From IMG/VR virus record IMGVR_UViG_3300044712_001463: DNA of 64,000 bases; one strand, written 5' to 3'. Both the position numbers and the translations under genes were made by a program. This document shows positions 7,943 through 30,800 of this stretch, piece after piece. Every line of letters begins with the position of its first letter. Position 1 is the first letter of the stretch. Under the pieces are notes generated by a model. It saw only the letters and a program-made list of their open reading frames with translations, was not told where the DNA came from and searched no databases. Origin of the DNA: a virus (lineage: Duplodnaviria > Heunggongvirae > Uroviricota > Caudoviricetes).

Positions 7943-7964
7943 TTGAAAAACAAGCAAAAACATA

Positions 7965-7998
7965 AGAGGGGATTCTTCGGAATCCCCTTATTTTTTTT
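7965..7998 (+). terminator. rho-independent terminator
   Basis: gaggggattc-ttcg-gaatccccttatttttttt. Confidence 0.75.
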
Positions 7999-8087
7999 AT
8001 AAAAAAGTAATAGTAAGAAGCCTTAAAATCTCTCAAAAAGGATTGAAATGAAACGGGAATCTTCCCTCAAGTCTTTAAAAGAGATAA

Positions 8088-11564: not shown

Positions 11565-11565
11565 T

Positions 11566-12270
11566 ATGTATTTTGAAATAAAAGACCAAATAAAGATAAT
11601 CGCAGCATTGTCCCTAGCAGATAAAAAGACTGCTAGGGACAATGGCATTTCTTATCGTGAAGCAAATTTATTTGAATCAATTAATAAAATAACCAATACG
11701 TCTAAGAGTGGTGACTATTATTTTAATCCAAAGACTAGAGCTTTTATGATACTCATGCCGCCTAGCAAGGATGCCGAAGCAGAAGATAAAAGCGGTAAGC
11801 CTAAGTGGAAATACATAGAAAGATTGCTAGGAAGAGGTGGAAGAGGTATTTCTGATAACGAGGCGCCGGCAGAGTTTGTTGCTGCTTTAAAAAAACCAGA
11901 ATACTACAAGGGAAATATTATAGAAGCTGGAACCCAAGAAATTAAAGATAAAATTATTCCAGGAAAAGAATATAAATTTAGATTTAAAGAGCCAGATGAG
12001 GAACAGGAAGAAGAAGATTCTATTATAAGAGTAATATTTGAAAGAGTTGGAATGTCAAGAGGCTGGTATAATGCTGGCTCAATATTTTCTCATATAAATG
12101 AACCTGAGAGACTCTACAGATATTTTGGACCAGAATACTATTATAAGTTTAAAACACCAGAAGATGGTATAAAATATAATGCGGTTCCTTTTTCACGGGG
12201 AAATTCATTTGATGGTGGAGTAGACTTAAATGATTACATCTTAAGAGATTATATTGAGGCAGATAAATGA
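11566..12270 (+). CDS. leader family protein with 24-aa N-terminal extension (…GISYREANLFESINK)
   Basis: Leader motif internal at aa ~25; start chosen after upstream stop. Confidence 0.5.
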   Translation: MYFEIKDQIKIIAALSLADKKTARDNGISYREANLFESINKITNTSKSGDYYFNPKTRAFMILMPPSKDAEAEDKSGKPKWKYIERLLGRGGRGISDNEAPAEFVAALKKPEYYKGNIIEAGTQEIKDKIIPGKEYKFRFKEPDEEQEEEDSIIRVIFERVGMSRGWYNAGSIFSHINEPERLYRYFGPEYYYKFKTPEDGIKYNAVPFSRGNSFDGGVDLNDYILRDYIEADK

Positions 12271-12725
12271 TTTCTTATAGAGAAAGAGTTATCAATTTAG
12301 TCAACGATCTCTTGAAAGAAAGAGGAATTAATTATTTGCGCCTTAATGACATTAAATTTGAAGAACCGCCAGCGGTTAGGCTCTCAGAATTTCTTTGGAA
12401 CAAACTTAAATGGGTAGGTAATTCAAAAACAGTCCCAGCTGAAGGCATTCTTTTTATTAAGGGCAACCATAAACTAGAGCCAGGTTGGGAAATTCATGAA
12501 AAAACACATCTTGAGAATCCCGTAGAAGAAGTCACAGACAAATATCCAATAAATGAACAAGAGATAAGACCATTTACAGAACAAATAAAGTTTTATTTAA
12601 CCAAGGGGCTTTCTAAATGGCATATTATTGATTTAATAAAGCAGGATTATGGAAATGATTGGAAAAAAGAATGGGAATCAGTTTTCTCGGATTTAATTGA
12701 TTCAATTAGAGAGGGCTCAAAATGA
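12267..12725 (+). CDS. MISYRE-variant family protein (lacks NLFESLNKQ)
   Basis: N-term MISYRERVINL; ATGA coupling. Confidence 0.6.
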   Translation: MISYRERVINLVNDLLKERGINYLRLNDIKFEEPPAVRLSEFLWNKLKWVGNSKTVPAEGILFIKGNHKLEPGWEIHEKTHLENPVEEVTDKYPINEQEIRPFTEQIKFYLTKGLSKWHIIDLIKQDYGNDWKKEWESVFSDLIDSIREGSK

Positions 12726-13174
12726 TTTCCTATAGAGCAAATCTATTTGAGTCTTTGAATAAGCAAATAGATAATAGCATAAAAATCGGAGACATTTTAT
12801 TTAATAAAGAAAAATGCTCTGTTTTATTTTATCAGGCGCCAGAAAATAGCTACTTTTATTCCTTTGCTATAATCTCTCCAAAAACAAGAAGATTTGTTCC
12901 AGAAGAGACCAATGCAAATAATTTGCTAAATGACAAATCGTATAAAAAAATAGGAAATATATTCCAAATTAAAAACGTTGACATCAATAAATGCGCAGCA
13001 GTTCAGTTCAAATCCCTTATTAATCTTGCTAGTCTTTTAACAAATATAAGTGAGGACACGGAAATAACTCCAGAAATTATAATTAATTATCTTAGACACC
13101 ACTATAAATCGGCTAATTTTATATCAAAAGACCATTTTAAAAAATTAAATGAAATATATGGAGAGAAGAAATGA
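12722..13174 (+). CDS. leader family protein
   Basis: MISYRANLFESLNKQIDNS; ATGA coupling. Confidence 0.7.
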   Translation: MISYRANLFESLNKQIDNSIKIGDILFNKEKCSVLFYQAPENSYFYSFAIISPKTRRFVPEETNANNLLNDKSYKKIGNIFQIKNVDINKCAAVQFKSLINLASLLTNISEDTEITPEIIINYLRHHYKSANFISKDHFKKLNEIYGEKK

Positions 13175-13641
13175 TTTCCCACAGAGCAAATCTATTTGAG
13201 TCTTTGAATAAACAGATTAAAGTTAATATAGGAGAGGACTGGATTGAAATAATAAATCCCTCATCCTTTATTAGTCTTGGAATACATGAGTCACTTGCTG
13301 TAAAATCGGTCCCATTTCTAGTGGGATATAAAGACTTGCGTGAAGTAAATAGCGTTGTCACTCTGATGTCGAATCAAGGGATACATGGAAATTGGAGTAA
13401 TCATCAAATAGATATAGAAGGGTTTTTGAAAATACCATTTTCTTCATATAAAAAAATAAACCCACCAATAAAATATGCTTTTAAAATCAATGAAGAGGTT
13501 ATTTACAAAACCAAGAAACAAAAAACAAAAATCATAAGCCATGTAACTGGAGCCCATGGATGGGGAAATCCAGAATATCTTTTGGATATACAAAATATTG
13601 GCGGTCCCCAGGACGAAGAAAGAATCGAGAGAGTAAAATGA
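13171..13641 (+). CDS. leader family protein, subtype A (WIEII...PIKYAFKINEEV)
   Basis: MISHRANLFESLNKQ; ATGA coupling. Confidence 0.7.
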   Translation: MISHRANLFESLNKQIKVNIGEDWIEIINPSSFISLGIHESLAVKSVPFLVGYKDLREVNSVVTLMSNQGIHGNWSNHQIDIEGFLKIPFSSYKKINPPIKYAFKINEEVIYKTKKQKTKIISHVTGAHGWGNPEYLLDIQNIGGPQDEERIERVK

Positions 13642-14135
13642 TTTCCTACAGAGCAAATCTATTTGAGTCTATAAATAAACAGATTACCATACAGCGCGGC
13701 GCTGTATATGAATGCACAGTATCGTTTTGGGCAAAAGCAGTCAACGAATTGATTACTGGAAATGCTAATAGGTCAATCAATACAAAGGTTTCAGAAAAAT
13801 ATTTATGCATTGGAGGCAAAGACGGAAAGTCATTTTTAAGAGAAAAAATGAATTATGGGCTTGTTCTTTCCGTTGATTCTGTTCAATTAAAAAATAACTT
13901 TAAAAAAATAGGACAATTTAATCTAGATAAATTTAAAAAAGGTGATGAGGTAATTTGGAGTTCTGAAAAGTTTATTTTCTTGGATTATGGATTAAATCCA
14001 GATGGCGAATTAAAAAGTTACTTAATATACAAAAAAGACTATAGAGATAACTCTGACTTATTATTTCTTTCTCCTTCTGCTAATCCAGATGTCAAATATA
14101 TTAAAAAAGAAGGAGATTCAAATGATCTCCTATAG
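13638..14135 (+). CDS. leader family protein
   Basis: Start at internal ATG 13638 (MISYRANLFESINKQ), listed start overlaps upstream. Confidence 0.7.
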   Translation: MISYRANLFESINKQITIQRGAVYECTVSFWAKAVNELITGNANRSINTKVSEKYLCIGGKDGKSFLREKMNYGLVLSVDSVQLKNNFKKIGQFNLDKFKKGDEVIWSSEKFIFLDYGLNPDGELKSYLIYKKDYRDNSDLLFLSPSANPDVKYIKKEGDSNDLL

Positions 14136-14550
14136 AGTCTCAAATCTATTTGAATCACTCAATAAGCAAATGCCGGAAAAAGCACAAGATGCTCCTGGAA
14201 GCATTTATTGGAATGGGTCCAATGGCAGTCTTTATATTAAACTGTATGGTGATGTTTGGGAGACATATCATTACGATTACGATGAACAGTCTTATAGGCA
14301 ATCTGTTAGTTTCGATGGAGTAGATTTGAACGGATTCAAATATATAGGAAATGTTTTTATTCTGAAGAAAACAAAAATCACTAAAGAAATAAAGGGCATA
14401 AATCTTACAGCCGTAGCAGTATTAGAATTAAAAACATTTTTAAATCGAAATAGAAATAAAATGGATATAGAAAATTTGAAGGAAACTATTAAAAATGCTC
14501 TTTTCACAATAGAGTATTTAGATGGAAAAATGGGGAGCTTTAAACAGTGA
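14122..14550 (+). CDS. leader family protein, subtype C (GSIYWNG)
   Basis: MISYRVSNLFESLNKQ; RBS aaggag. Confidence 0.7.
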   Translation: MISYRVSNLFESLNKQMPEKAQDAPGSIYWNGSNGSLYIKLYGDVWETYHYDYDEQSYRQSVSFDGVDLNGFKYIGNVFILKKTKITKEIKGINLTAVAVLELKTFLNRNRNKMDIENLKETIKNALFTIEYLDGKMGSFKQ

Positions 14551-15047
14551 TTTCCTATAGAACCTCAAATCTATTCGATTCTTTGAATAAACAAGTCCCA
14601 AAAATGATTTTTGGACAGACTTGGATTGAAATTATAGATTATAATCCTTTCATTAAAATGCCAGGAGTATCTAGAGTTGCAAATGGAGATATATTCCTTG
14701 TGTCTTATAGAAGAAGGCGCCATATAATAGAGAAACGTCTAGTGCTAATGGGTTTAAAAGAAGAAAATTTCATATGGGATGAGCATGAATTAAGTGTAGA
14801 AGAATTTAATTCATTGCCAAAAACTTCATATAGAATTGTGCCATCTCCGTTGAATTATAAGTTCAAGATAGGTCAAGAAGTAAGGTATGAAGCACTTATG
14901 TATGGAACAGATATAATACCTTATGGAAAAGTAATTAGTTATGCTACTGGTATTGGAAGAGTTGAAGCAAAGTGTTATTTGGTTGAAAAGTCGCCTCAAG
15001 ATGAGCCAATTTTAGAAGATGAATTAATAGCAATGGGTGAAAAATGA
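14547..15047 (+). CDS. leader family protein, subtype A (FGQTWIEIID...NYKFKIGQEV); GTG start
   Basis: GTGA overlap; MISYRTSNLFDSLNKQ. Confidence 0.65.
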   Translation: MISYRTSNLFDSLNKQVPKMIFGQTWIEIIDYNPFIKMPGVSRVANGDIFLVSYRRRRHIIEKRLVLMGLKEENFIWDEHELSVEEFNSLPKTSYRIVPSPLNYKFKIGQEVRYEALMYGTDIIPYGKVISYATGIGRVEAKCYLVEKSPQDEPILEDELIAMGEK

Positions 15048-15499
15048 TCTCCTATAGAACCTCAAATCTATTTGATTCTTTGAATAAACAAATAAGTCCC
15101 TTTAAACTAGGTGACGTATTTACTGTTAAAGAAAATAAAAATGTAACTCTAAATAGTGGTTTCACAGTTTATTCATCAGGAGAATATATTTATTCTCATA
15201 ATGCAAACGGCAAACTTGTATTTCAAATATGTAGAAATTATAAAGATTATGGACTAGTTGATTTATCAGAAGTAAATATGTTTTTTAATAAAATAGGACA
15301 TGCTGAGTTGTATGGCTTCAAGGTTGGAGACCAAATATCTGCTGGTCAAAAAACCGCTAGCATCGATGGTCTATATATAGCGAGAATAGGGTTTACTATT
15401 GATTCAGGACCCAAATTTACTGCTAGAGCATACTTATCTGATACAAAAGACTCAGAAGTCCCAGTTCATGGATGGGATCTTAAGGATGTAAAACGATGA
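15044..15499 (+). CDS. leader family protein, subtype B (LGDVF...FGFKVGD)
   Basis: MISYRTSNLFDSLNKQ. Confidence 0.7.
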   Translation: MISYRTSNLFDSLNKQISPFKLGDVFTVKENKNVTLNSGFTVYSSGEYIYSHNANGKLVFQICRNYKDYGLVDLSEVNMFFNKIGHAELYGFKVGDQISAGQKTASIDGLYIARIGFTIDSGPKFTARAYLSDTKDSEVPVHGWDLKDVKR

Positions 15500-16362
15500 T
15501 TTCCTACAGAGCAAATCTATTTGAGTCTTTGAATAAGCACCTTGGCGGATTTCGGCTTGGGGATATATTTGAAAATAGCGGAAATTCGCATCATTCGCTT
15601 TTTGTATATTCACATAATGTTTCCAATAAAGCAATTTTTATAAGACAGGACCATTCCCAAGACGTTATGGAAATAGATTTAAAAGAAATAAAAGAAGAAT
15701 CCTTAAAAAACCATAATCTTAAATTTGTTAGACATGGAGATTACCAAGGAATAAAAGTTGGTGACCAATATACTTTGAATGAATTAAATTATTTTGTTAT
15801 TGGGCTTGGATTGAATGAATCAGAAGTAGAAAAATTATATCTCAGTTTAGGCAAAATGATTAATATTACAGAAAAAAACACAGTTAGTGTTGCTAGAGAA
15901 GGAATTGAATTCGCGACTTTACCGACTAAAAAAACCGCAAACCTATTTGATTCTATAAATAAGCATCTACAAACTCAAGTGCCGAAGGAGCCACAGGCTG
16001 GCGACATTTTTTGGAATAAGCACTCAGAGAAGATTTGCATATGTTATGCTCCTAAAAATAGATTTTGGTATAGATGGGCAATAATATCGGGTAATGTTCG
16101 CGTTGACCATCAAGATTATAACTCAGACCTAGAAGGATTTACTTATTTGGGAAATATATTCAAAATTCGTCCCGAAGGTGAGAAATTTAAAAAAGAAGGA
16201 TTTGATGCGTGCGGCTTTGAGGACAGTTCCAATGAGGTGCTAGATTGGGTAAGAAGAACAGGAATTGAAAATGTAACAGGTCAAGGTATTATTCAATTTA
16301 TAAAAGATACTGACAAAATTATATGGAAAAATTCCTCAAGCGGAGACATTCAAGAGCCATGA
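15496..16362 (+). CDS. two-module leader family protein (B-like + C-like); internal motif KKTANLFDSINKHL at ~15937
   Basis: Leader core repeated internally after KK. Confidence 0.7.
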   Translation: MISYRANLFESLNKHLGGFRLGDIFENSGNSHHSLFVYSHNVSNKAIFIRQDHSQDVMEIDLKEIKEESLKNHNLKFVRHGDYQGIKVGDQYTLNELNYFVIGLGLNESEVEKLYLSLGKMINITEKNTVSVAREGIEFATLPTKKTANLFDSINKHLQTQVPKEPQAGDIFWNKHSEKICICYAPKNRFWYRWAIISGNVRVDHQDYNSDLEGFTYLGNIFKIRPEGEKFKKEGFDACGFEDSSNEVLDWVRRTGIENVTGQGIIQFIKDTDKIIWKNSSSGDIQEP

Positions 16363-17222
16363 TCTCCTACAGAGCAAACCTATTTGAATCCTTGAATAAG
16401 TTAAATGTTCCACAACTCGGAGACATAGTTGAGACTATTACACCGAATGGAATAAAAATAGCTGGAATAGTTGCGACTGAGGATGGGGCGGACATTGATA
16501 AATCATATGAAGGGAAAAAAGGATATATCTATGTTTATCAGTTTCATTTCTATGATAAGAGTGGATCAGGATTATTTAGAGTTCCAATAAATAGTTTAAA
16601 AAAAATACCAGGAAAACAATTACCAACAAGACCTAAATATTCACCCGGACAGGAAATTGGTCGTGCAAAAATATTAGCAGTAAATTATTCAACAACTGAT
16701 TATCACTATCTTTGTGATGACAGAGGAAATAACAGGATTTGGGTGTATGAAAGTGATTTTGATAAAATCAAATTAAACAAAAAAGCCAATCTATTTGATT
16801 CCTTAAATAAACAAATAAATCCATTTAAGCCAGGCGATGTCTTCGTTCTCAAAAGCTCGAACTTTTTAAATGGAAAAGAATATCCATCTAATTCAATGTG
16901 GATTTATTCTCACAATAATAAATCCACGGGCTTGGCAGTTATGCAAATGAAGCATAGTGAAGAAGATGTTATTGAGATTAGTACTTCAAAAATAGGCTCC
17001 TTATTTAAATTTGTAAGACACTGCGATTTAATGGGATTCGAAATTGGGGATAAGGTAAGGTCTCCGCATGGTGAAGAATATTATATAAAATCCTTTGGCA
17101 TGAACGAAGTCGGAGATGGACAAGCCAAGGCTTATTGTTATAATTCTTTTCGTGGAATTAATCAAAAAGGATATGCGGATTGTGATGCCCAGTTATCCGA
17201 GTTAAAGAAGGTAAAAGAATGA
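16359..17222 (+). CDS. two-module leader family protein (D + B); internal KKANLFDSLNKQI at ~16785
   Basis: Start at ATG 16359; leader repeated internally. Confidence 0.7.
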   Translation: MISYRANLFESLNKLNVPQLGDIVETITPNGIKIAGIVATEDGADIDKSYEGKKGYIYVYQFHFYDKSGSGLFRVPINSLKKIPGKQLPTRPKYSPGQEIGRAKILAVNYSTTDYHYLCDDRGNNRIWVYESDFDKIKLNKKANLFDSLNKQINPFKPGDVFVLKSSNFLNGKEYPSNSMWIYSHNNKSTGLAVMQMKHSEEDVIEISTSKIGSLFKFVRHCDLMGFEIGDKVRSPHGEEYYIKSFGMNEVGDGQAKAYCYNSFRGINQKGYADCDAQLSELKKVKE

Positions 17223-17581
17223 TCTCCTACAGAGCAAATCTATTTGAGTCTCTTCAGAAACAAGTGCCTGTAAAATTTACTACAGGGGATATTATTTATA
17301 TTCCAAACAAAGAAATAGGTGTTTATTATAATGAAAATAGGATGTTTGTTCTTGATAGTGTCTTTGACAATAGAAGACATTCAATTCAAAACTTATTACC
17401 AGGCACTATTGATTCTAGAATAAATTGTCCTAAAGTAGCTTCAAATATAAATCAAAACTATGGCTTTCACTTTACTAACCTTGTTGTGAAATATAATCTA
17501 CATGGAAAAAACGTAGACACAAATATACAAAGATTAAAAGAAATGGCCAAAGACTTTGAAAATGAAAATTTCGAGGCATAA
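17219..17581 (+). CDS. leader family protein (MISYRANLFESLQKQ)
   Basis: ATGA coupling. Confidence 0.7.
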   Translation: MISYRANLFESLQKQVPVKFTTGDIIYIPNKEIGVYYNENRMFVLDSVFDNRRHSIQNLLPGTIDSRINCPKVASNINQNYGFHFTNLVVKYNLHGKNVDTNIQRLKEMAKDFENENFEA

Positions 17582-17583
17582 GA

Positions 17584-18558
17584 ATGATCTCCCATAGAGC
17601 AAATTTATTTGAGTCTATAAATAAACAAATGCCAAAAGTTGTTTTTGGACAAACTTGGATTGAGATAATTGACCCTAAGCCTTTCAATGAAATTTCTGAT
17701 TCTGATAACTACAAATCCAAACAAGTTTATTTACTTGGGTATGCTGGAATCGAATATATTGATGCACATAGAATTCAATTAATGGGAATAACCGATGAGA
17801 CACAACTTTGGGCAGAACATGAGATGGAAGAGGATAATTTTAATAAAATACCAAAAACAGCTTATAGAATAATATCATCACCATTACAATACAAATATAA
17901 AATAGGACAGCTAGTTTATAGTGATAGACAAGGGAACATATGGGAGATAGTAGGTTTTGTAACTGGAGAGCATTCTCCTGAATCAAAGGAATATTTGTGC
18001 AAAGATGTTGTAAGAGATGGTTTAGATACTGTTGTGCGAGAACAAGTAATATATGATCAATTAAAAAAATTAGGTCCAGCCAAAAAAGAGATTCGCAATG
18101 CAAATCTATTTGAATCTCTTAACAAGCATACAAATGCTTATCAGCCTGGGGATGTATTTGAAGCCAAAGGAACAAAGATAGTTAATGGGCTTTGGCATAT
18201 CTCAACAAAATATAGATATGTTTTTTCTCATAAAACTCTCCTAGGTAATATCATAATGCAAAGAGGCGGACACTCAAATGATTGGTCTGTCTTAAGCCTA
18301 GACCAAATAAAAGAATATTTTATTAAAGTTGGTCATGTAGAACTTTATGGATTCAAAGTAGGTGACTTTATACCGAAAGAACCTAATGCCTCCGAATCAG
18401 TATTGAGAAGAGAAATTATTGAAAAGTATCTTATAAGAATAGGTCTTGATTCAAATGACCTTAATTTAGCTAGAGGTTATTTCTCTCCTGAAAAAAATTC
18501 TGATGTGGCTACAGATGGCGTTGCTTTATTATTTATAAAGGACATAAAAAAACAATGA
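17584..18558 (+). CDS. two-module leader family protein (A + B); internal RNANLFESLNKH at ~18100
   Basis: MISHRANLFESINKQ; FGQTWIEIID. Confidence 0.7.
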   Translation: MISHRANLFESINKQMPKVVFGQTWIEIIDPKPFNEISDSDNYKSKQVYLLGYAGIEYIDAHRIQLMGITDETQLWAEHEMEEDNFNKIPKTAYRIISSPLQYKYKIGQLVYSDRQGNIWEIVGFVTGEHSPESKEYLCKDVVRDGLDTVVREQVIYDQLKKLGPAKKEIRNANLFESLNKHTNAYQPGDVFEAKGTKIVNGLWHISTKYRYVFSHKTLLGNIIMQRGGHSNDWSVLSLDQIKEYFIKVGHVELYGFKVGDFIPKEPNASESVLRREIIEKYLIRIGLDSNDLNLARGYFSPEKNSDVATDGVALLFIKDIKKQ

Positions 18559-19034
18559 TCTCCTACAGAGCAAATCTATTTGAGTCACTTCAGAAGCATA
18601 TAAATCTTTATACACCTGGAGATTTATTTGAATCTATTGTTGAATATAAGGAATTCCCACATCAAGGCGATATCGCTGGTAATATTAGAAAGGAAAAAGG
18701 CTACGCTTACCTTTTTTCACATATGAGCGTTGGTAAAATGATTTTAGTTCAAAGAAATCATGGGGCGAATATTATTGACCTAGACCCAAAAGATGTAAAA
18801 AAATATTTAAAGATTATAAGTCATATTGATTTTCTAGGATTCAAGGTTGGTGATGAAATTGTTCAAACTAATTATGAATTAACTGGCAGGCATTATAAAA
18901 TAACCTGCCTAGGACTAAGGTCTGATAATACACCTAAAGCCTATTGTCATGATGCAAGAGATAATGTTTTATATAGATGGGATCCTACTAGAAGTTGCAC
19001 TGAAATAGATCTTTCATTATATAAGAAGGTATAA
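18555..19034 (+). CDS. leader family protein, subtype B
   Basis: MISYRANLFESLQKH; GFKVGDEI. Confidence 0.7.
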   Translation: MISYRANLFESLQKHINLYTPGDLFESIVEYKEFPHQGDIAGNIRKEKGYAYLFSHMSVGKMILVQRNHGANIIDLDPKDVKKYLKIISHIDFLGFKVGDEIVQTNYELTGRHYKITCLGLRSDNTPKAYCHDARDNVLYRWDPTRSCTEIDLSLYKKV

Positions 19035-19038
19035 TCAA

Positions 19039-19491
19039 ATGATTTCTTACAGAACCTCAAATCTATTTGACTCCATTAAGAAACAAATGAATCCATTTAA
19101 GCCTGGAGATGTATTCACGGCTAAAGAAAAATTTCGTTTCCGTGATAGATTTGTTATAGAGCCAGGAATTAATTATATTTTTTCGCATATGAAAGATGAT
19201 AAAATTGTAATGCAAGAACAGGCAGAATGGAGAAGTTGGGGAGAGATTTCTCCTCAAGAAGTCATGAAGTATTTTAATAAAGTAGGAGAAGCAAACTTAT
19301 TTGGCTTTAAGGTAGGAGATAAAGTTGATATTCCTAGTGGAAGTGTAGTAAATCCACGTATAAATGGTTTATATATCATAAGAATAGGGCTTGCTGGTGG
19401 AGAGCCGTTTTCTGCAAGAGGATATTTTAATAGAGGAAAAGAATCAGAAACTCCAGATTATGGATATGATCTTAAGGACATAAAAAAATGA
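19039..19491 (+). CDS. leader family protein, subtype B
   Basis: MISYRTSNLFDSIKKQ; FGFKVGDKV. Confidence 0.7.
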   Translation: MISYRTSNLFDSIKKQMNPFKPGDVFTAKEKFRFRDRFVIEPGINYIFSHMKDDKIVMQEQAEWRSWGEISPQEVMKYFNKVGEANLFGFKVGDKVDIPSGSVVNPRINGLYIIRIGLAGGEPFSARGYFNRGKESETPDYGYDLKDIKK

Positions 19492-19934
19492 TTTCTTACA
19501 GAGCAAATTTATTTGAATCACTTAATAAGCAATTAAATCTCGGTCTTCAAGATGGAGACTTTATAGAATTTAGGGGAAGAACCTATGTTGTCATGCAAAA
19601 TTATATATGGCAACAAGGGAAAGAATTGTTTTTAGAATGTATGGACGATACTGGTAAAAATATTGCGATTAAAAAAGAAGACCTTGAAAAGGAAAAATAT
19701 AAAAAAATAAATCCGCCAATAAAGCCTGCACACAAAGTAGGAGACATGATTGATGGTTGGAAGATAATATCAATTCTATATTCAATTGGTTCTAAAAAAT
19801 TTCAATATGCCGCTATAAATGATGAATTAAAAGAAGCCGTAGAGTTTTATGATTTTGAAGATTTGAAAAGAAAGAAAAGGTCTAATTATAGTAGCCATTA
19901 TTACACAACTTATAAAGAATGGACTTCAAGATGA
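19488..19934 (+). CDS. leader family protein
   Basis: MISYRANLFESLNKQ; PPIKPAHKVGDMI. Confidence 0.7.
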   Translation: MISYRANLFESLNKQLNLGLQDGDFIEFRGRTYVVMQNYIWQQGKELFLECMDDTGKNIAIKKEDLEKEKYKKINPPIKPAHKVGDMIDGWKIISILYSIGSKKFQYAAINDELKEAVEFYDFEDLKRKKRSNYSSHYYTTYKEWTSR

Positions 19935-20374
19935 TTTCCTATAGAGCAAACCTATTTGATTCGATTAGAAAACAAACGTTCTTTAATGGAGAGCCTAAGA
20001 TAGGTGATATATTCTGGGACGGTAAAAATATACATATTTATTTGTGTGAATTGAATGATCATAATTGGACATGGGTTCATTATCTTTATTCAAAAGATCT
20101 TAAAAACTATAGTTATCTTAGCAACGATGAAAAACCACAAAATCTTAAAAATTACAGATTAATAGGAAATGTATATAAGTTAAAAAATATAGAAAGCAGA
20201 AGGGATTCCACCTTCGGCTTAGCGTCATTTCCAGGATTTTCAGATTTTATCGCATGGTTAAATCTAAATGAAGATAAAAATCTAAAAGAACAAGATATAT
20301 TAAACAAAATAAAAGAACTTCCATTTATGATTTGGGCAGCAAAAACACCAAATCGTTATGAGGAAATTAAATGA
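19931..20374 (+). CDS. leader family protein, subtype C (GDIFWDGKN)
   Basis: Start at ATG 19931. Confidence 0.7.
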   Translation: MISYRANLFDSIRKQTFFNGEPKIGDIFWDGKNIHIYLCELNDHNWTWVHYLYSKDLKNYSYLSNDEKPQNLKNYRLIGNVYKLKNIESRRDSTFGLASFPGFSDFIAWLNLNEDKNLKEQDILNKIKELPFMIWAAKTPNRYEEIK

Positions 20375-20874
20375 TTTCTTACAGAGCAAATTTATTTGAG
20401 TCTTTGAATAAACAAATACCAAAGGTCATCTTTGGGCAAACCTGGATTAAGATAATTAATCCTGAATTATTCAATAAATATTCAAATGCCTTGTCTAGTC
20501 TCCAGACTTATAAAGCTGGCGAAGTTTATCTTATCAGTTCTACTGCAAGGCTAAAGAAATCTGGTAAGATAATACTCATGGGTATTGTAAGTACAATGTG
20601 GGCTTCGCATATTTTAAAGGAAGAAGACTTTAATAAAATACCCAAACAAGATTATTTAATAGTACCATCTCCATTAGACTATAAATACAAAATAGGACAA
20701 AAGGTTAGATTCGGTGCCGTAAGAATAGAATATAAGATTATCTATTTCGCCACGGGCAATAAGCGCCCAGGCTCTAAGGATTATGCTATACAATCTGCCG
20801 AGGAAGAGCGTAATAATGATTTTTCTATAACCTCTGAGGAGACTTTAACTCCTTGGGAGGAGAGCGCACAATGA
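20371..20874 (+). CDS. leader family protein, subtype A
   Basis: MISYRANLFESLNKQIPKVIFGQTWIKII. Confidence 0.7.
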   Translation: MISYRANLFESLNKQIPKVIFGQTWIKIINPELFNKYSNALSSLQTYKAGEVYLISSTARLKKSGKIILMGIVSTMWASHILKEEDFNKIPKQDYLIVPSPLDYKYKIGQKVRFGAVRIEYKIIYFATGNKRPGSKDYAIQSAEEERNNDFSITSEETLTPWEESAQ

Positions 20875-21356
20875 TTTCTTACAGAGCCAACCTATTTGAG
20901 TCCCTTAATAAACAAATACCAAGAGTTGTCTTTGGACAAACGTGGATTGAGGTAATTGATCCAAAATCATTTGAACCATTTATCTCAGAGCGATACGCCA
21001 ACAAAGGCGTGCCATTTTTAGTGGGAGCACCATATATAGGTGATTTCCAAAGAAAAAGAATAACACTAATGGCGGCTAGTGGTTCTGCGGCTGATTGGAG
21101 TAATCGTAGTTTATCATTTGAAGATTTCCAAAAAATACCAAAGCAAGCCTACAAAATAGTGCCCTCTCCAATACCATATAAATTTAAAATTGGCGACGAG
21201 GTCATGTCAAATGTAGTTGGCAATAAAGGAAAAGTTGTTGCTTATTATTGTAATGGACAGAAAAGTGAAAACAAGCAAGCATATTGGATACAATTAAATG
21301 ATGGGACTAAGATGCAGAAATATGAAGAACATATTACAGGAGTATCTAATTCATGA
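20871..21356 (+). CDS. leader family protein, subtype A
   Basis: Start at ATG 20871; FGQTWIEVID...PYKFKIGDEV. Confidence 0.7.
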   Translation: MISYRANLFESLNKQIPRVVFGQTWIEVIDPKSFEPFISERYANKGVPFLVGAPYIGDFQRKRITLMAASGSAADWSNRSLSFEDFQKIPKQAYKIVPSPIPYKFKIGDEVMSNVVGNKGKVVAYYCNGQKSENKQAYWIQLNDGTKMQKYEEHITGVSNS

Positions 21357-21817
21357 TTTCCTACAGAGCAAATTTATTTGATTCCTTGAATAAACAAATA
21401 AATCCCTATAAGTCAGGAGATTTATTTAAGGCTATTGATTTTTTTAATATTAATGGCATGATAGATAAAAGAGGTAGAAATGTTAATAAAAATGATATAT
21501 TTATTCTGTCACACAAAATAGGAAATAAGTGTGTAATGCAAAGACAAGACTGTGAAGGTTGTGTTGTTTTATTTGACAAGAAGCAAATAGATGAACATTT
21601 TAAGTTATATAAACATGAGGATTTTGGACAATTTTCCATAGGGCAGAAGGTTTGCCCAAGAGATTTGTCAGATCGTCGCGCAGGAGAAGCAAGATATATC
21701 ATTAGATTTGGATTAACAGGAGAATTAGAACCTAAAGCCTATTTAGCATGGAGTCCTAGCGAAAATACTGCGGATGCTGGAGACTATAAACTTATAGATT
21801 TGAGGATTATAGAATGA
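21353..21817 (+). CDS. leader family protein, subtype B
   Basis: MISYRANLFDSLNKQ. Confidence 0.7.
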   Translation: MISYRANLFDSLNKQINPYKSGDLFKAIDFFNINGMIDKRGRNVNKNDIFILSHKIGNKCVMQRQDCEGCVVLFDKKQIDEHFKLYKHEDFGQFSIGQKVCPRDLSDRRAGEARYIIRFGLTGELEPKAYLAWSPSENTADAGDYKLIDLRIIE

Positions 21818-22479
21818 TTTCCTACAGACATTCAAACCTATTTGAATCCATTAAGAAGCAAATGCCCGCGAATCCAAAAATCGGGGATATTTATTATTGT
21901 CCTACAAGAAAATCCTTTGCTATTTTAAGATCGATAAGGGATATGTCCTGGGCCATCGTATATCGGGTAAGGGATAATAGATATACTACATGGAATAATA
22001 AGTCTTTAAACATCCCGGGTAGTATGTCCAAAATAGGAAATATGTTCGAATTAAAAAATTTGGAAATCCCTGAGCCGCCATATATAATATCATCTTTATC
22101 TTTATCATCTATGGTAAGAAAAATACGACAAGGCCAAGACCCTACAAAAGAATGGGTTCTTGATGAATTTAAAAACCTAACAAGCGCAGAAATCGCAAAA
22201 GAGGTCTTAGGCCAAGAGCATTATGAAAGAGAAGATAAAAAGACAGTAGCCAACCTATTTGAATCTCTTAATAAACATATAAATCATAAATATGTTATTA
22301 TAGGTCGGTATAATCCTAAGTCTCCTGATATATATTACTTTGGAAAAGAAAGAGGAACAAAGACATATACCTACGACATACAACTAGCAAAGGTATTCAA
22401 TAGTAGGGCAGAGGCCGAGAAAATTTTGAACAGTATATCGGATAAAAGATATTACAGAATCATAGAGGTCAATTCATGA
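21814..22479 (+). CDS. two-module leader family protein; internal KKTVANLFESLNKHI at ~22249
   Basis: MISYRHSNLFESIKKQ. Confidence 0.7.
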   Translation: MISYRHSNLFESIKKQMPANPKIGDIYYCPTRKSFAILRSIRDMSWAIVYRVRDNRYTTWNNKSLNIPGSMSKIGNMFELKNLEIPEPPYIISSLSLSSMVRKIRQGQDPTKEWVLDEFKNLTSAEIAKEVLGQEHYEREDKKTVANLFESLNKHINHKYVIIGRYNPKSPDIYYFGKERGTKTYTYDIQLAKVFNSRAEAEKILNSISDKRYYRIIEVNS

Positions 22480-23387
22480 TTTCTTACAGAGCAAACCTAT
22501 TTGAGTCCCTTCAGAAGCAAATGCCTGTCAATCTAGGAGATATAGTTGAAACTACTGCTACTGGTGGATATAGAATAGTTGGAATAGTTGCCACTAGAGA
22601 AGGGCAAGATATAAGTGACAAAAACAAAGGTGAAAAGGGATATGTATATATTTATGGATTTAATACAAAACTCAAGGAAGGTAATGGATTATTTCTAGTG
22701 CCAATAAGTAGTTTGAAAAAAATACCAGGTGAGCAATTGCCAACAAGACCCAAATACTCCCCAGGCCAAACGATTGGGAACAACATAAAAATCATTGCGG
22801 TTAATTATGCAAAAGATGATTATAGTTATCTTTGTGATAGTAGTGAAGATGGTCGGCGTTGGGGTCGGTGTTGGTATGATGAAAAAGAAATCGATCAAAT
22901 GCAATTATCCAAGAAGGCCAACCTATTTGAATCTATTAAGAAACAAATACCTAATGTTATCTTTGGAGAGACTTGGATTGAGATAATCGATCCAAAGCCA
23001 TTTAATTCGGCTAACATGCATAATTCATTTAATAATGGAGATGTATATTTAGTATCTTATCATGATAGAGAAAATATAGAAAGAGGATTGCTTTATTTAA
23101 TGGGAATAACTAGCAGGACATTCTCATGGGGTGAACACGAACTTACAAAAGAGCAATTTAATAAAATTCCTAAATCAGCTTATAAAGTAATACCATCGCC
23201 ATTAGAATATAAATATAAGATAGGCCAAGAGTTTAATGATTATGAACTAACTTTTAAAATAATCGCCCTCGTAACTGGATACAATGGAATAGAGCATCAA
23301 GATTATCTATGCGAGCAAGTAGGCTCTAGGGAAACTAGAATTTACAAACAAGAGGTTATTGATGGGCTTATGGGAGAGAACCAATGA
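22476..23387 (+). CDS. two-module leader family protein (D + A); internal KKANLFESIKKQI at ~22917
   Basis: MISYRANLFESLQKQ; FGETWIEIID. Confidence 0.7.
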   Translation: MISYRANLFESLQKQMPVNLGDIVETTATGGYRIVGIVATREGQDISDKNKGEKGYVYIYGFNTKLKEGNGLFLVPISSLKKIPGEQLPTRPKYSPGQTIGNNIKIIAVNYAKDDYSYLCDSSEDGRRWGRCWYDEKEIDQMQLSKKANLFESIKKQIPNVIFGETWIEIIDPKPFNSANMHNSFNNGDVYLVSYHDRENIERGLLYLMGITSRTFSWGEHELTKEQFNKIPKSAYKVIPSPLEYKYKIGQEFNDYELTFKIIALVTGYNGIEHQDYLCEQVGSRETRIYKQEVIDGLMGENQ

Positions 23388-23848
23388 TATCCTACAGGGC
23401 AAATCTATTCGAATCACTTAATAAGCAAAATCCAGTAATCTTTGGACAGACCTGGATTAAAATAATCGACTCTAAGCCTTTCCTTGAAATTCCAAATGTA
23501 AAGGATATTAGTGATGGAGATATTTTTCTTGTTTCTTATAAAAGTAAAGTTGATATGAGGGATGGTATTATATCACTTATGGGACTGAAGGTCGAAAACC
23601 TTATATGGGATAATCATAGTTTAAGAATAGATAGATTTAAATCTATATCTAGATCCGCATATAGAATCGTGCCATGCCCATTGAATTATAAATACAAAAT
23701 AGGGCAGACGGTTTATACTGGTCGCCCTGACAAGGTAATATCCCTTGCAACTGGCATCGGAGAACCAGAAACAAAATGTTATTTATTAGAACATAGTGCC
23801 CCTTATCCTATCCAAGAAAGTCAATTATCGGAAAGGGCTAGGAAATGA
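23384..23848 (+). CDS. leader family protein, subtype A
   Basis: MISYRANLFESLNKQNPVIFGQTWIKII. Confidence 0.7.
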   Translation: MISYRANLFESLNKQNPVIFGQTWIKIIDSKPFLEIPNVKDISDGDIFLVSYKSKVDMRDGIISLMGLKVENLIWDNHSLRIDRFKSISRSAYRIVPCPLNYKYKIGQTVYTGRPDKVISLATGIGEPETKCYLLEHSAPYPIQESQLSERARK

Positions 23849-24336
23849 TCTCTTACCGAGCAAATCTATTTGAGTCTCTTAATAAGCAAATAAATACCCT
23901 TAGGCCAGGGGACATACTTGAGCCTAAGTCTAATATTATGGAGGCTATTATTTCCAAAAAAGGGATAAGATGGGTTTTAGCTCCTAATGATATGTACAAC
24001 ATATCGCATATAAAAGGGAATTATTCAGTATTCGTAATAAACGGCAGTAGACAGACTTGGATTGAATTAACGCCAGAAGAAATACATAAATACTATAACA
24101 AAATAGGTGAGGCCAACCTATATGGATTTAAGGCAGGGGATAAGATTCCAATTTCTTGTGTTGAGAGAATGACAAATGTTCGGACACCTACAAATGAACT
24201 ATTTTTATATGAAATAATGGTTGTTGGAAAAGAAAGCCCACTATCAATTGGATTATTAGGAGCGGAAAATAGATTAGACCAAGCTTTTGCAACCTATCTT
24301 CCCCTAGAAGATCTAGCAAAGAGGTGTGGTAAATGA
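23845..24336 (+). CDS. leader family protein, subtype B
   Basis: MISYRANLFESLNKQ; YGFKAGDKI. Confidence 0.7.
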   Translation: MISYRANLFESLNKQINTLRPGDILEPKSNIMEAIISKKGIRWVLAPNDMYNISHIKGNYSVFVINGSRQTWIELTPEEIHKYYNKIGEANLYGFKAGDKIPISCVERMTNVRTPTNELFLYEIMVVGKESPLSIGLLGAENRLDQAFATYLPLEDLAKRCGK

Positions 24337-24794
24337 TCTCCTATAGAAATTCAAACCTATTTGAATCTATTAAGAAACAAATACTTCCTACTCCTGGGAT
24401 TATTTATCAGCCTATTGAAGATAAGCCTTGGCCTAACCCCTATTTAAATGTTAGTTTTTCAAAACAATGTTTTTATTTGTTCTCGCATATTAGGGATGGT
24501 AAGATGGTTCTTATTAGGAGAATGGCAGGAGATTGGGTTTTCGAAGTAAGTCATGATGAGATAAATAGTATTTTAAAGCCCGTAGGCCAAGCCGATTTAA
24601 AGGGTTTCAAAGTCGGGGATAAGATTCGCCGTAAAGGATTAAGTGAAATATTTATAATAGTAGGATTCGGCTTGACTGGCGATAATACCCCGAAAGCCTA
24701 TTGTATTCAAGAAGGAGCAGATATTGAACCTATCTGGGACTTCCATTTTACTAGTGCAATTTCATTAATGGTAATGGAAAAGGTATCCCAATGA
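24333..24794 (+). CDS. leader family protein, subtype B (PWPNP)
   Basis: MISYRNSNLFESIKKQ; KGFKVGDKI. Confidence 0.7.
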   Translation: MISYRNSNLFESIKKQILPTPGIIYQPIEDKPWPNPYLNVSFSKQCFYLFSHIRDGKMVLIRRMAGDWVFEVSHDEINSILKPVGQADLKGFKVGDKIRRKGLSEIFIIVGFGLTGDNTPKAYCIQEGADIEPIWDFHFTSAISLMVMEKVSQ

Positions 24795-25267
24795 TCTCCT
24801 ACCGGACCTCAAACCTATTCGATTCTATTAAGAAACAAATACCCTTTAGGTCAGGGGACATACTCAAACCTATTTCACCTACCAAAATGGATTGGAACGG
24901 ATGGGAGATAAATCCCGATAGGCCATACAATGTTTCGCATATAACGGAGAATGGATTAGTAGTCGTTCAAAATGGATTCTTATCTAGTGATTTCGCCAAA
25001 CTAACACTAGAAGATGCAAAATTGCTATTTGAAAAAATAGGTGAGTCCAACCTCTATGGTTTCAAGGTAGGGGATATGGTCTGTCCTGAATATGTTCGCG
25101 GGGTAAGGCAAACTGAAAAGACTTGTTATTACCTAAATAAAATACTTGTCAACGCAGCAGGTAAAGCATTTGGATTCTTTACTAAAGATAATAATAATGA
25201 TGCTAAGAAATTTGATTCATATTGTGAATTATCTAAATTGCAAAAACAAGGCGGTTCTGTCCAGTAA
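24791..25267 (+). CDS. leader family protein, subtype B
   Basis: MISYRTSNLFDSIKKQ; YGFKVGDMV. Confidence 0.7.
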   Translation: MISYRTSNLFDSIKKQIPFRSGDILKPISPTKMDWNGWEINPDRPYNVSHITENGLVVVQNGFLSSDFAKLTLEDAKLLFEKIGESNLYGFKVGDMVCPEYVRGVRQTEKTCYYLNKILVNAAGKAFGFFTKDNNNDAKKFDSYCELSKLQKQGGSVQ

Positions 25268-25584
25268 TCGGGTTTTACCCCGTAGGCCAAAGCATTAATT
25301 TTGTCCGGCGATTGGAAACATTGTAAAACTTTATAAGAAACTAGTAGTGTGTGGTAAAGTAATAAAAGCCCATAGGCCAAAGGATAAATTGAGTAATTGT
25401 TGCAAATGGTCTATTGTGGTTTATTGTGGGTAGGAATAGGATAGATTGGATAAGAGGGGAGGTGTAGTGTCATTCACCTCTCTTAATAAGATCTACAAAT
25501 CACCACCCTACCCTGGTTTGTTAAGTCATATTAAGTTTTGTCTATCGTTAATTAATAAATCTTAATAAGAAGGATTTATACAAC

Positions 25585-26118
25585 ATGATAAGTTATAGGA
25601 ATGCAAATATATTTGAATCATTAAAGAAGCAGATGTATCCTCTTGTTGGAGGCATATATATTTGTTTAGAGGATAAGCCCTGGCCTAACCCACGGAACAG
25701 GCATTTGGCTATTATAGAAGGTGAGAGATATATCTTTTCACATGTAAGAGATGGCAAGATGGTTCTAGTGCAAAAGATGCAGGGTGGGAATGTTTTCGAG
25801 GTAGGTCCAGGGGATATAAAAAAATACTTTAGTTTTCTTGACCAGGGTGATTTAAGAGGTTTCAAAGTAGGAGACATGGTTGTAAGGGGAGACGTTGAGG
25901 TTCTTGAAGTTCCAGGTAGAATGCATGAGGCCGGCAGGTCAATTCCTAGATATAAAATAATGGCATTCGGATTAGGAATAAGACTAGCACCCAAGGCATA
26001 TTGTTTAAGAGAGGGCTCTGGAACTGAAGAGGGAATTGGACTAGAATATTTGAAATGGAGTTTCGCCCATTGCGACTCAGAACTTCTTTTAGAACAGATA
26101 AAGAAGGCTGACAAATGA
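25585..26118 (+). CDS. leader family protein, subtype B (PWPNP); first gene after internal non-coding gap
   Basis: MISYRNANIFESLKKQ. Confidence 0.7.
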   Translation: MISYRNANIFESLKKQMYPLVGGIYICLEDKPWPNPRNRHLAIIEGERYIFSHVRDGKMVLVQKMQGGNVFEVGPGDIKKYFSFLDQGDLRGFKVGDMVVRGDVEVLEVPGRMHEAGRSIPRYKIMAFGLGIRLAPKAYCLREGSGTEEGIGLEYLKWSFAHCDSELLLEQIKKADK

Positions 26119-26591
26119 TCTCTTACAGAGCAAATCTATTCGAATCTATTAATAAGATAAATGCGCCTAGGCCCGGGGTTGTTTATGAAGGTATTGTGAA
26201 TAAGGATTGGCCTAACCCGAGGCACAATGATATTGGGATTACAGAAGGGGAGCAATATATTTTCTCTCATATGAGAAATGGCAAGATGGTTCTTGTTAGA
26301 AAAATGGCTGGTTCTTGGATTTTTGAAGTAAGTCCTAACGAGATAAATAAATACTTTAAACCCATAGGCCAAGCAAACTTACAGGGGTATGAAATAGGAG
26401 ATAAGATATATAGTGAAATGTATGGCAATGGAACCATAACAGGGTTCGGCCTAGCGGATATTGAAAGAATAAAAGCATATATAATTAGAGAAGGGATTGT
26501 TGAGGATGAGGATGACAAATGGGATTTTATATCTGGTAACGGTCACGATGATCCTTTATTGAGCAGAGTAGAAAAAGGATGGAAGAAATGA
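26115..26591 (+). CDS. leader family protein, subtype B
   Basis: MISYRANLFESINKI; KPIGQANLQGYEIGDKI. Confidence 0.7.
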   Translation: MISYRANLFESINKINAPRPGVVYEGIVNKDWPNPRHNDIGITEGEQYIFSHMRNGKMVLVRKMAGSWIFEVSPNEINKYFKPIGQANLQGYEIGDKIYSEMYGNGTITGFGLADIERIKAYIIREGIVEDEDDKWDFISGNGHDDPLLSRVEKGWKK

Positions 26592-27073
26592 TTTCTTATC
26601 GTAAGTCCAACTTATTTGAATCCTTAAACAAAATGAACATCTGTAGTCCAGGTGATATTTTTGAAGGCATTGCAAATATGCCCTGGCCTCATAGCGAAAA
26701 GCAGGTATGGATATGGAAGGGAACTCGTTATATATTTTCACATATGTATAATGGTAAGATGGTTCTCATACAGAAGAACGAAGGTAGCAGGATTTTCTTT
26801 GTATCACCTAGCGAATTAAATAAATATTTTAAGCGCATAGGCCATGCTGATTTTCAAGGACTTAAAGTAGGGGATTATGTTTATACTGAGAGCAGGGAGA
26901 CTGGGACTTTCAGGCATTATATAATAACTGCCCTGGGCCTATACGATGATGACAGTCCGATGCCCTGGTGTAGGTGGATACATGATTCAGTTCCATTTAA
27001 TCCAGAGAGGCCAACAAACAGAGCAGAAAGATTTTACTTAAAAGAGATTATTAAGAATCCACATCAGGGGTAG
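26588..27073 (+). CDS. leader family protein, subtype B
   Basis: Start at ATG 26588; MISYRKSNLFESLNKM. Confidence 0.7.
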   Translation: MISYRKSNLFESLNKMNICSPGDIFEGIANMPWPHSEKQVWIWKGTRYIFSHMYNGKMVLIQKNEGSRIFFVSPSELNKYFKRIGHADFQGLKVGDYVYTESRETGTFRHYIITALGLYDDDSPMPWCRWIHDSVPFNPERPTNRAERFYLKEIIKNPHQG

Positions 27074-27078
27074 GCCAA

Positions 27079-27618
27079 ATGATTTCTTATCGTGCAAATT
27101 TATTTGAATCCTTGAACAAGGTTGTCAAAAAGATTACTGAGTCTGGGCAATACTGCGTAGGCCCAGACGGAATTGTTTATTTTGTTAATGCTGGCGAAAA
27201 CATAGGGGACTTTTATTTAATGTCCGAAAAGGGTAATGTTACTAAGACCACGAACCTTGATGAGATTAATAAGAATTATCAATATACGACACCTAGGCCA
27301 GGGTGGGTAACTAAGAAAGTCAAAGACGGAACTCGATATGCTCATTATCCTCATAGGGCTGGGGATAAATATGAGGCAAGAGGTGCTGACGGAAGCTATA
27401 GGCTTATATGGATTTCATGCGGTTGCTATATAACTTCATTTAAGAATTTTTCTAAGATGATGTTAAGTTATAGAGCTGCAACTATGCCAAATCCGGAAGC
27501 AAGGAAGCCAGAAAGAAAACCTAGTTCGATAACGCACGAAGATGTTCTCATCAAAGATATATTGGATGATAATAATCAATGGGTTAATAATGATACAAGA
27601 GGCCCAGGGGGATACTGA
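27079..27618 (+). CDS. leader family protein
   Basis: MISYRANLFESLNKV; internal MMLSYRAA echo. Confidence 0.65.
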   Translation: MISYRANLFESLNKVVKKITESGQYCVGPDGIVYFVNAGENIGDFYLMSEKGNVTKTTNLDEINKNYQYTTPRPGWVTKKVKDGTRYAHYPHRAGDKYEARGADGSYRLIWISCGCYITSFKNFSKMMLSYRAATMPNPEARKPERKPSSITHEDVLIKDILDDNNQWVNNDTRGPGGY

Positions 27619-27621
27619 TAA

Positions 27622-28059
27622 ATGATTTCTTATCGTGCAAATTTATTTGAATCCTTAAAGAAGCAAATCAACCCTGGGCCTCCTAGGGTTGGTGATTTCT
27701 TTTGGGATAGCGAGAACCAGGTATTTATTCTCAAGACATGTGACCAGAACAATTCAAAATATGTTTTCGGACAGGCTTATAAAGATAGGGAAGATGGTGA
27801 GTTCCTATATAAATTCAGAGATAATGCTACTATCACTGGCAGACGTTTGGGCAATGTTCTAGATATGAATCCTAAAGCGGCTGAGGCTTTTAAAAGGAAT
27901 GAGATAAATTGCATAGAAACATTCAAGTTCATACAAAACCTTTGTGAATGGCTTGACAAGGCAAATATAACCGAGCGTGGTATCATAGAATATGTAAGAG
28001 CCTATAAGTTCGGCTGGATTAAAATAACTGCTGGTGGTGAAGCAGGAGTAGAACTATGA
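27622..28059 (+). CDS. leader family protein, subtype C (GDFFWDSEN)
   Basis: MISYRANLFESLKKQ. Confidence 0.7.
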   Translation: MISYRANLFESLKKQINPGPPRVGDFFWDSENQVFILKTCDQNNSKYVFGQAYKDREDGEFLYKFRDNATITGRRLGNVLDMNPKAAEAFKRNEINCIETFKFIQNLCEWLDKANITERGIIEYVRAYKFGWIKITAGGEAGVEL

Positions 28060-28502
28060 TTTCTTACCGGGCAAACTTATTTGAATCCTTGAACAGGGTG
28101 GTGGCTAAACAGTATCAGCCTGGGGATGTATTTAAGGAAAGTGGTATTGCTGATAGTTTTTCCATCTTAATGATTGAACGGGTAGGTAGAGAAAGAGGTG
28201 GACAAACTCTTTATTGGCTTCATAGAAAAGGTCTTCCCGATCAGAACATAAAGCTTACCCAGAAACAATTAGATGACAAGGCTAGTTTTAATTATATTAG
28301 GCACTTGGACTTGGGTGACTGGAAGGTAGGAGACTTTTGTAAATTAAACGAATCCTTCCAGGGAGATCAAGAAACATATAAAATAGAAACAATATTCCTA
28401 GATAACTTCGATATGGTCAGGGTAGGCTTAAATAAAAACTGGAGTTATCATAATGTTGCTGAAAAAACCGTGCTGCTTGTCCATATAAAAAAGCCTTCCT
28501 AG
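28056..28502 (+). CDS. leader family protein (last array member)
   Basis: MISYRANLFESLNRV; ATGA coupling. Confidence 0.7.
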   Translation: MISYRANLFESLNRVVAKQYQPGDVFKESGIADSFSILMIERVGRERGGQTLYWLHRKGLPDQNIKLTQKQLDDKASFNYIRHLDLGDWKVGDFCKLNESFQGDQETYKIETIFLDNFDMVRVGLNKNWSYHNVAEKTVLLVHIKKPS

Positions 28503-30570: not shown

Positions 30571-30595
30571 CCTTTTCTTCTTCTAGGAGTCCGCA

Positions 30596-30739: not shown

Positions 30740-30758
30740 AGAAGGCAAATCAAGGCAG

Positions 30759-30797: not shown

Positions 30798-30800
30798 GGC

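Follow-up and report, generated by a model that had tools for sequence, protein, structure and literature searches.

In phage T4, highly diverse internal proteins have in common just a 10–19 residue N-terminal capsid-targeting sequence, and the gp21 protease cleaves after L/I-x-E; the positions that matter in the internal protein IPIII are 4 and 7 for targeting and 8 and 10 for processing, and an Asp at position 10 blocks processing (PMC9026906, PMC3012670). According to a T4 review, gp21-like processing after Glu also takes place in the jumbo phages phiKZ, 201phi2-1 and SPN3US. Here we analysed a 64,000-nucleotide stretch of DNA (hereafter "the window", meaning the whole of that stretch) from the Caudoviricetes record IMGVR_UViG_3300044712_001463, in which 31 genes of one family start with a shared leader, made up of the pentapeptide MISYR and a core of the form A-N-L-F-[E/D]-S-[L/I]-x-K-[Q/H], and in which five long genes repeat the core in mid-protein. 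Our preferred explanation, which we hold with moderate confidence, is that these five genes are fusions of homologous modules, each with its own conserved N-terminal helix.

Set beside T4 IPI, IPII, IPIII and Alt, the window likewise encodes otherwise dissimilar small phage proteins with a short common N-terminal peptide (MISYR plus core in 31 genes), and this peptide likewise has an aromatic residue at position 4, Leu or Ile at position 8 and an acidic residue at position 10. The two sets differ in that the T4 bodies are mutually unrelated and belong to only 3–4 genes, whereas the bodies here are homologous, SH3-like and read as two barrels, and the genes number 31 plus 4 divergent members. 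With the ankyrin/PRANC families of poxviruses, which are generally known for having expanded in tandem and for joining a variable binding body to a single short, invariant helical motif, the window has these same three features in common, although the motif is C-terminal there and N-terminal here, and both the fold and the domain of life of the host are different.

The two-module genes and their internal cores

The internal cores proposed by the initial annotation were all recovered, with the Ala codon before NLF at 15937, 16785, 18100, 22249 and 22917, and all five are found inside uninterrupted open reading frames (ORFs). A degenerate DNA pattern for the core gave 36 matches, all on the + strand, vs 0.00 expected from 100 dinucleotide shuffles, and a 37th copy of the core, at 8633, has AGT for its Ser. 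The array, the five genes and their internal cores are listed here, along with the residues matched by a hidden Markov model (HMM) of the family.

8615..28502, + strand: main gene array, with 31 family genes starting with MISYR and the core
15496..16362, + strand: two-module gene, type B then type C; HMM matches at residues 1–121 and 148–269
15937..15966, + strand: internal core ANLFDSINKH, preceded by TKKT
16359..17222, + strand: two-module gene, type D then type B; HMM matches at residues 1–141 and 143–286
16785..16814, + strand: internal core ANLFDSLNKQ, preceded by LNKK
17584..18558, + strand: two-module gene, type A then type B; HMM matches at residues 1–162 and 171–323
18100..18129, + strand: internal core ANLFESLNKH, preceded by KKEIRN
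21814..22479, + strand: two-module gene, type C then an orphan body of 76 residues; the second HMM match extends over no more than the leader and the beginning of barrel 1
22249..22278, + strand: internal core ANLFESLNKH, preceded by KKTV
22476..23387, + strand: two-module gene, type D then type A; HMM matches at residues 1–147 and 147–293
22917..22946, + strand: internal core ANLFESIKKQ, preceded by LSKK

In each gene the motif sits, as had been claimed, at the junction of two different body subtypes (B+C, D+B, A+B, C+orphan and D+A), and the family HMM finds two full-length modules in 4/5 of the fused genes, the second match being partial in 21814. A KK dipeptide ahead of the internal core was also part of that claim, and this part applies to four of the genes and fails in 17584, which has KKEIRN instead. 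The dipeptide is a replacement of Arg5 of MISYR and not a separate signal, because 37/37 copies of the core have a Lys or Arg 2–4 residues before the helix, this residue being Arg5 in the N-terminal copies and part of KK or RN in the internal ones.

Clustering the leader-stripped bodies with BLAST gave types B (14), A (7), C (6) and D (3), plus singletons. These subtypes are divergent paralogues of one ~150-residue module rather than unrelated folds; types A and B align end to end in MAFFT, whatever is trimmed, and besides the leader the subtypes share an invariant Gly, placed at the first strand, and, at the second barrel, the motif K-[VI]-G-[DQ]. In the structure models, the module opens with a disordered tip, continues with a short amphipathic helix, which is the core, and ends in an SH3-like beta-barrel body that appears to contain two barrels. 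The AlphaFold2 model of 19039–19488, built on a 39-row family alignment, has a mean predicted local distance difference test score (pLDDT) of 89.9 and a predicted template modelling score (pTM) of 0.82, with residues 1–8 unstructured, residues 9–17 helical (block pLDDT about 75) and the remainder confidently all-beta. For the fused gene 17584, the AlphaFold model has a C-half with pLDDT 84–97, in which the internal core lies within a helix at residues 165–183, ahead of a confident B module; only this half is modelled well because MAFFT stacks the A- and B-type modules on one half. Structure comparison places the family body with the five-stranded small barrels of the SH3-like fold. It differs from the known SH3-like and Tudor-like small beta-barrels, including the phage DUF1653-type, in having no Pfam, PHROG or PDB sequence match and in its conserved N-terminal helix, which is not a feature of those families.

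The helix itself reads L-F-[E/D]-[S/A]-[L/I]-x-K-[Q/H]-hydrophobic, following a basic residue and an N-cap Asn (or Ser). Its hydrophobic face is formed by Leu, Phe, Leu/Ile and the fourth hydrophobic residue (hydrophobic moment about 0.6), while the acidic position, which takes E or D, is spaced i/i+4 from the Lys. Such a 10-residue amphipathic helix, extremely conserved relative to the bodies and modelled with moderate pLDDT next to bodies above 90, might instead be a free short linear docking peptide that is loosely tethered to the barrels and stays outside their fold, in which case the two-module proteins would be bivalent. Encapsulation peptides of microcompartment cargo and the PRANC/F-box tails of poxvirus ankyrin families offer analogues for such a peptide. 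We consider this explanation rather unlikely, given that the linker from the core to the first strand is nearly fixed (7–9 residues from the core Lys to the first downstream Gly in 30/37 copies), which a free peptide would not need, that the invariant residues run on into the start of barrel 1 (G23), and that no candidate hub was identified.

Under the fusion explanation that we prefer, the five long genes would be in-frame fusions of neighbouring family members, and the internal motif would be the first helix of the second module, kept since each module needs its helix as protein. The core would be expected at each junction because every module has it as its first structural element, and any fusion therefore carries it along. 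No other surface of these otherwise 22% identical paralogues is nearly as conserved as the helix. Together with the start of barrel 1, the helix may form a shared contact site for one common partner or assembly, with the variable barrels giving different specificities. If the helix is a common docking or packaging signal, the leader would represent a compact cargo-directing tag in a jumbo phage; if it is not, the apparent oddity of a leader core in mid-protein is explained as ordinary domain fusion.

Traces of how such fusions may have formed can be read at the junctions. Each half of the fusions nests among single-module relatives, and taking 14 nucleotides (TGA to AGA) out of an ATGA junction of the form ...AAA AAA TGA/ATG ATT TCT TAC AGA GCA... 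yields K-K-A-N-L-F, which is the junction found in 16359 and 22476. At the junction of 17584, the residues E-I-R-N-A resemble the sequence M-I-(S-Y)-R-N-A found in 9031 and 25585, which are both single genes, and by this resemblance EIRNA looks like a remnant of MI(SY)RNA. The initial annotation had also inferred that modules are being shuffled, and this is supported in part, by the two D-type N-halves, which are mutual closest relatives (56%), have the linker and core in common, and lose their similarity right after the core, where a type B body follows in one and a type A body in the other. This pair could have arisen from one fusion and a later swap of the body downstream, or from two parallel deletions.

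Selection on the core peptide and pairing bias of the MISYR codons

Our codon counts, like the counts of would-be cleavage residues below, cover 36 array copies of the core. Amino-acid identity is 77% in the core vs 22% in the bodies, while pairs of identical residues differ in their codons in 44% of cases in the core and 52% in MISYR, close to the 53% and 55% expected at saturation from the array's own codon usage; codon families have been switched as well (Ser between TCN and AGT, Arg between AGR and CGN). Because synonymous sites are near saturation while identity in the core is far above that in the bodies, selection acts on the protein, in agreement with the protein-level role first suggested for the core. 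The accompanying argument, that start-codon context would not be enough to keep the core, is borne out by the four divergent members of the family, which begin directly with the core, lack MISYR and have their own TTGACA-N17-TATAAT promoter and strong GGAGGA Shine-Dalgarno (SD) sequence.

41158..41982, + strand: divergent member, starts MSLFDALNKHL, without MISYR; TTGACA/TATAAT promoter box and GGAGGA SD
41987..42478, + strand: divergent member, GTG start followed by SLFDAINKQL
43138..43659, + strand: divergent member, starts MSLFDAIAKH; own promoter box and SD
43702..44211, + strand: divergent member, starts MSLFDALAKQL; own promoter box and SD

These four genes sit in a block rich in guanine and cytosine (GC) and have the common start M/V-SLFDA[L/I]xK[H/Q], and two of them are matched by the family HMM (E about 1e-5), from HMM position 8 onwards. 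With them, the family amounts to about 35 genes (31 plus 4 divergent) and is phage-specific. The gene at 41158–41982 alone in the family carries a recognisable extra domain, a C-terminal WGR, which hints at a nucleic-acid-related context.

The same codon data bear on a contrasting explanation, in which it is the DNA or RNA of the motif that would be maintained, whether as a hot spot for recombination in cassette shuffling or as a translation-initiation element, with the peptide as a by-product; for the shuffling, analogues are the junction motifs of polymorphic toxin loci and the PeSL cassettes of T4-type phages. Consistent with this, the D-type fusions are alike through body, linker and core before they split into B or A bodies, YTA and ATA are the sole codons at the first Leu of the core, and a GCC Ala codon precedes the helix in four copies, three of them internal. 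We nevertheless see only a slight chance that it is correct. The near-saturation of synonymous sites holds for the 36 array copies as a whole, TCN and AGT codons are both in use for Ser, the GC-rich members retain the peptide with other codons, the internal copies have no start function, and merely about 24 nucleotides at roughly 75% identity would be on offer for homologous recombination. Recombination cassettes should show a nucleotide-conserved junction, and the proportions of differing codons found here (0.44–0.52 vs 0.53–0.55 at saturation) do not fit that expectation.

MISYR, the other part of the leader, is absent at the internal cores of all five fusions and from the four divergent members. 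It is separable from the core, as two genes have MISYR without it, and one further gene outside the two-module set has its leader away from the N-terminus.

4468..4971, + strand: gene starting MISYRE without the core
12267..12725, + strand: gene starting MISYRE without the core, inside the array
11566..12270, + strand: sixth gene with a non-N-terminal leader; its body is not a family module

In the last of these, a 26-residue extension is followed by G-ISYRE-ANLFESINK at 11647–11694, with GGC at the position of the would-be ATG.

We relate MISYR to the way in which the array genes abut. From 8088 to 28502, 27/36 junctions are 4-nucleotide ATGA overlaps with the SD within the last codons of the upstream gene, and the codon choice of MISYR is unlike that of the bodies, favouring TAC, TCY and ATY. 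The MISYR codons are biased towards pairing with the SD: predicted pairing of the SD window with codons 2–5 comes to 4.8 base-pair equivalents vs 2.7 in synonymous recodings, exceeding the recoded controls in 27/31 genes (Wilcoxon p = 5e-7), and the same measure gives 2.0 for thirty other low-GC genes (p = 3e-6). In gene 14122, the two sides form a clean AGGAGAU/AUCUCCU hairpin. The pyrimidine-rich MISYR codons (AUY UCY UAY) would thus pair with the SD in the tail of the upstream gene, fitting tight translational coupling, and we infer with moderate strength that MISYR serves chiefly as start context, gating this coupling, and becomes dispensable once a module is fused. Translationally coupled ATGA operons with SD occlusion are alike in their ATGA overlaps, in having the SD in the upstream gene and in the predicted pairing with codons 2–5, and they are different in that the predicted occluding element here is a conserved coding pentapeptide reused 31 times. 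One 15-codon stretch would then separate two layers of selection, an RNA-level gate for coupled translation and a protein-level helix, and the natural fusions represent a ready-made experiment on which layer belongs to which part of the leader.

Several observations weigh against this combined picture of fused modules and a two-part leader. The predicted SD hairpins are weak (mean minimum free energy -4.7 kcal/mol), which is why the coupling role of MISYR is put no more strongly than above, and the two genes that start with MISYRE alone have little SD pairing (1.4). The internal copy at 11647 retains ISYR, and loss of MISYR on internalisation is therefore not obligatory. Inside the core, 36 copies have CTA or TTA at the first Leu codon (e.g., 12743–12745) and the remaining copy has ATA (Ile), such that the third position of this codon is A in 37/37 copies vs about 56% expected for Leu codons of the gene bodies, and some nucleotide-level constraint remains at this codon. 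As for the helix, its pLDDT is moderate (about 75, and 57–84 for the internal copy) and the scores of the models do not distinguish a helix packed on barrel 1 from a free one, while no partner for it was identified and no homologue outside this phage gives context.

Possible capsid targeting and cleavage

Polyprotein cleavage at the internal cores, one of the roles proposed at the outset, is not supported; there is no sign of processing, and several features oppose a Glu-specific site. In its fullest form, this explanation takes the leader as a T4-like capsid-targeting propeptide with a gp21-type protease site, and the two-module proteins as polyproteins that are split in the head. The T4 internal proteins set a precedent for it, and in the 23 insertion-free genes position 4 is Tyr (His in two), position 8 is Leu and position 10 is acidic, with 19 Glu and 4 Asp. 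Residues 1–8 are predicted to be disordered and would be accessible, and the phage relatives of neighbouring genes are jumbo phages, though mainly of other groups, e.g., PA5oct-like.

We still judge capsid targeting to be quite unlikely. The would-be P1 motif is L-F-E in 27/36 array copies, L-F-D in 9/36 and L-F-D in 4/4 divergent members, and Asp is the residue that blocks processing when placed at position 10 in T4. A one-residue insertion in eight genes moves Leu and Glu to positions 9 and 11, and conservation continues for at least 5 residues beyond the would-be cut (S-L/I-x-K-Q/H), a stretch not required by sites of the T4 and phiKZ types. Members that start with M-SLFDA would be left with a 5-residue propeptide lacking Tyr4, and the core is predicted to be helical, at a fixed short spacing to the first strand. 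The window holds no protease, scaffold or capsid gene, and scans of the family and of window proteins gave no protease domain. In these respects (the Asp copies, the conservation past the cut and a helix tied to the fold) the leader differs from that of the T4 internal proteins. We rate slightly lower the chance of an extended version, in which some 35 SH3-like binders would be loaded into the capsid via MISYR..LFE, trimmed by the protease and co-injected as an anti-defence arsenal, with the five genes being true polyproteins.

Family distribution, array surroundings and genome setting

Searches for relatives returned the family to its own phage. Outside it, no relative was detected in libraries of proteins derived from about 15 billion predicted sequences; 5.8 billion protein clusters, queried with a single sequence, a whole-family profile and a profile of the GC-rich subfamily, gave this contig's own proteins only; and a full HMMER search of 1.84 billion representatives with the type-B profile gave the window proteins plus one weak repeat protein (P0023). 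The DNA pattern of the leader had 0 matches in IMG/VR, Joint Genome Institute (JGI) metagenomes and GTDB genomes, vs 27 in the window as a control, and a core-only DNA pattern had 52 single matches in metagenomes, all in unrelated ORFs without family context (HMM score at most 20 bits). No Pfam match reached the gathering threshold, PHROGs gave none, the best PDB match had E = 0.76, and a fold comparison against BFVD gave nothing significant. That PDB match, to the mRNA triphosphatase 6l7v ('LFDAVNKHLSNPF', E = 0.76), was set aside as chance because the fold does not fit. A clamp-binding peptide was also considered, from a supposed resemblance to the RB69 polymerase tail KKASLFDMFDF, and was dropped, as a PDB sequence search with the window's 25-residue core peptide did not confirm the resemblance. 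Megablast of 12–30 kb against phage records found no match, so there is no close phage relative among them.

The family fills roughly 20 kb of a 94.8-kb phage contig, that is, the JGI metagenome contig from which the window was drawn, and has the appearance of a very large and very young lineage-specific expansion. Its array genes are mostly ATGA-overlapped, and the set of 31 with the full leader includes 28056–28502. Five non-family genes interrupt the array at 9479–12725, three of them without any leader. Within this block, 10266–11564 encodes a 432-residue, extremely acidic, Lys/Glu-rich low-complexity protein that matched no Pfam family. The array block is preceded by a putative terminator.

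7966..7999, + strand: hairpin with a T-run that resembles a terminator, immediately ahead of the array block

The first gene after this terminator, 8088–8618, encodes a HEAT-like or leucine-rich repeat protein (176 amino acids) and is ATGA-coupled to the first family gene. Further along, the otherwise gap-free array has a 318-nucleotide non-coding gap at 25268–25584, which contains a GC-rich hairpin at about 25453–25485 and short direct repeats (TAGGCCAAAG twice); the folding of this gap is not significant (z = -1.8), and it has no Rfam match.

The window seems to be a piece of a jumbo-phage genome. Among its genes are those for tRNA-modification enzymes (MnmA-like and TilS-like), a Dam methylase and an AAA ATPase, and the phage relatives of these neighbour genes are jumbo phages only. 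The TilS-like protein has 43% identity with PA5oct-like phages and about 41% with uncultured phages of 630 kb, and the ATPase matches jumbo Pseudomonas, Salmonella and Erwinia phages. The MnmA-like gene lies at 1009–2031, and the TilS-like gene at 29843–30475 adjoins a tRNA cluster at 30494–35554, in which ARAGORN calls seven tRNAs (Met x2, Arg-CCT, Arg-CCG, Lys, Gly and Phe); an eighth call at 35481, from Rfam, is weak.

Run SRR26046407 provides three Logan contigs (L001, L002 and L003) that match parts of the window at 100% identity. Of these, L002 corresponds to window 404–8601, and the Logan assembly breaks 14 nucleotides before the first array gene, which implies that the array is repetitive enough to defeat short-k-mer assembly; the JGI contig alone spans it. 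Head genes are absent from the 64-kb window, and the three Logan contigs add none, L003 having small ORFs only. GC content is sharply split, at about 50% over 30000–54000 (the tRNA and early-promoter block) vs about 32–34% at 4000–28000 and 55000–64000. The GC-rich block is reproduced by the independent Logan contig L001, and its junction with the array is not.

The window also carries ~19 near-identical cassettes with a perfect sigma-70 consensus, all on the + strand, each made up of cTTGACAAGT, a 13-nucleotide spacer, TATAATAGAGTC, an SD and an ATG.

976, 2425, 3458, 30823, 35738, 36512, 37315, 39158, 39754 and 41134, + strand: sigma-70 cassettes
43113, 43678, 47027, 47965, 48384, 50543, 51919, 52499 and 53550, + strand: remaining sigma-70 cassettes

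Consensus promoter boxes, abundant elsewhere in the window, do not occur inside the 8–28.5 kb array. Many of the sigma-70 cassettes come after a hairpin and T-run, forming terminator-promoter units that resemble PeSL-like mobile regulatory cassettes.

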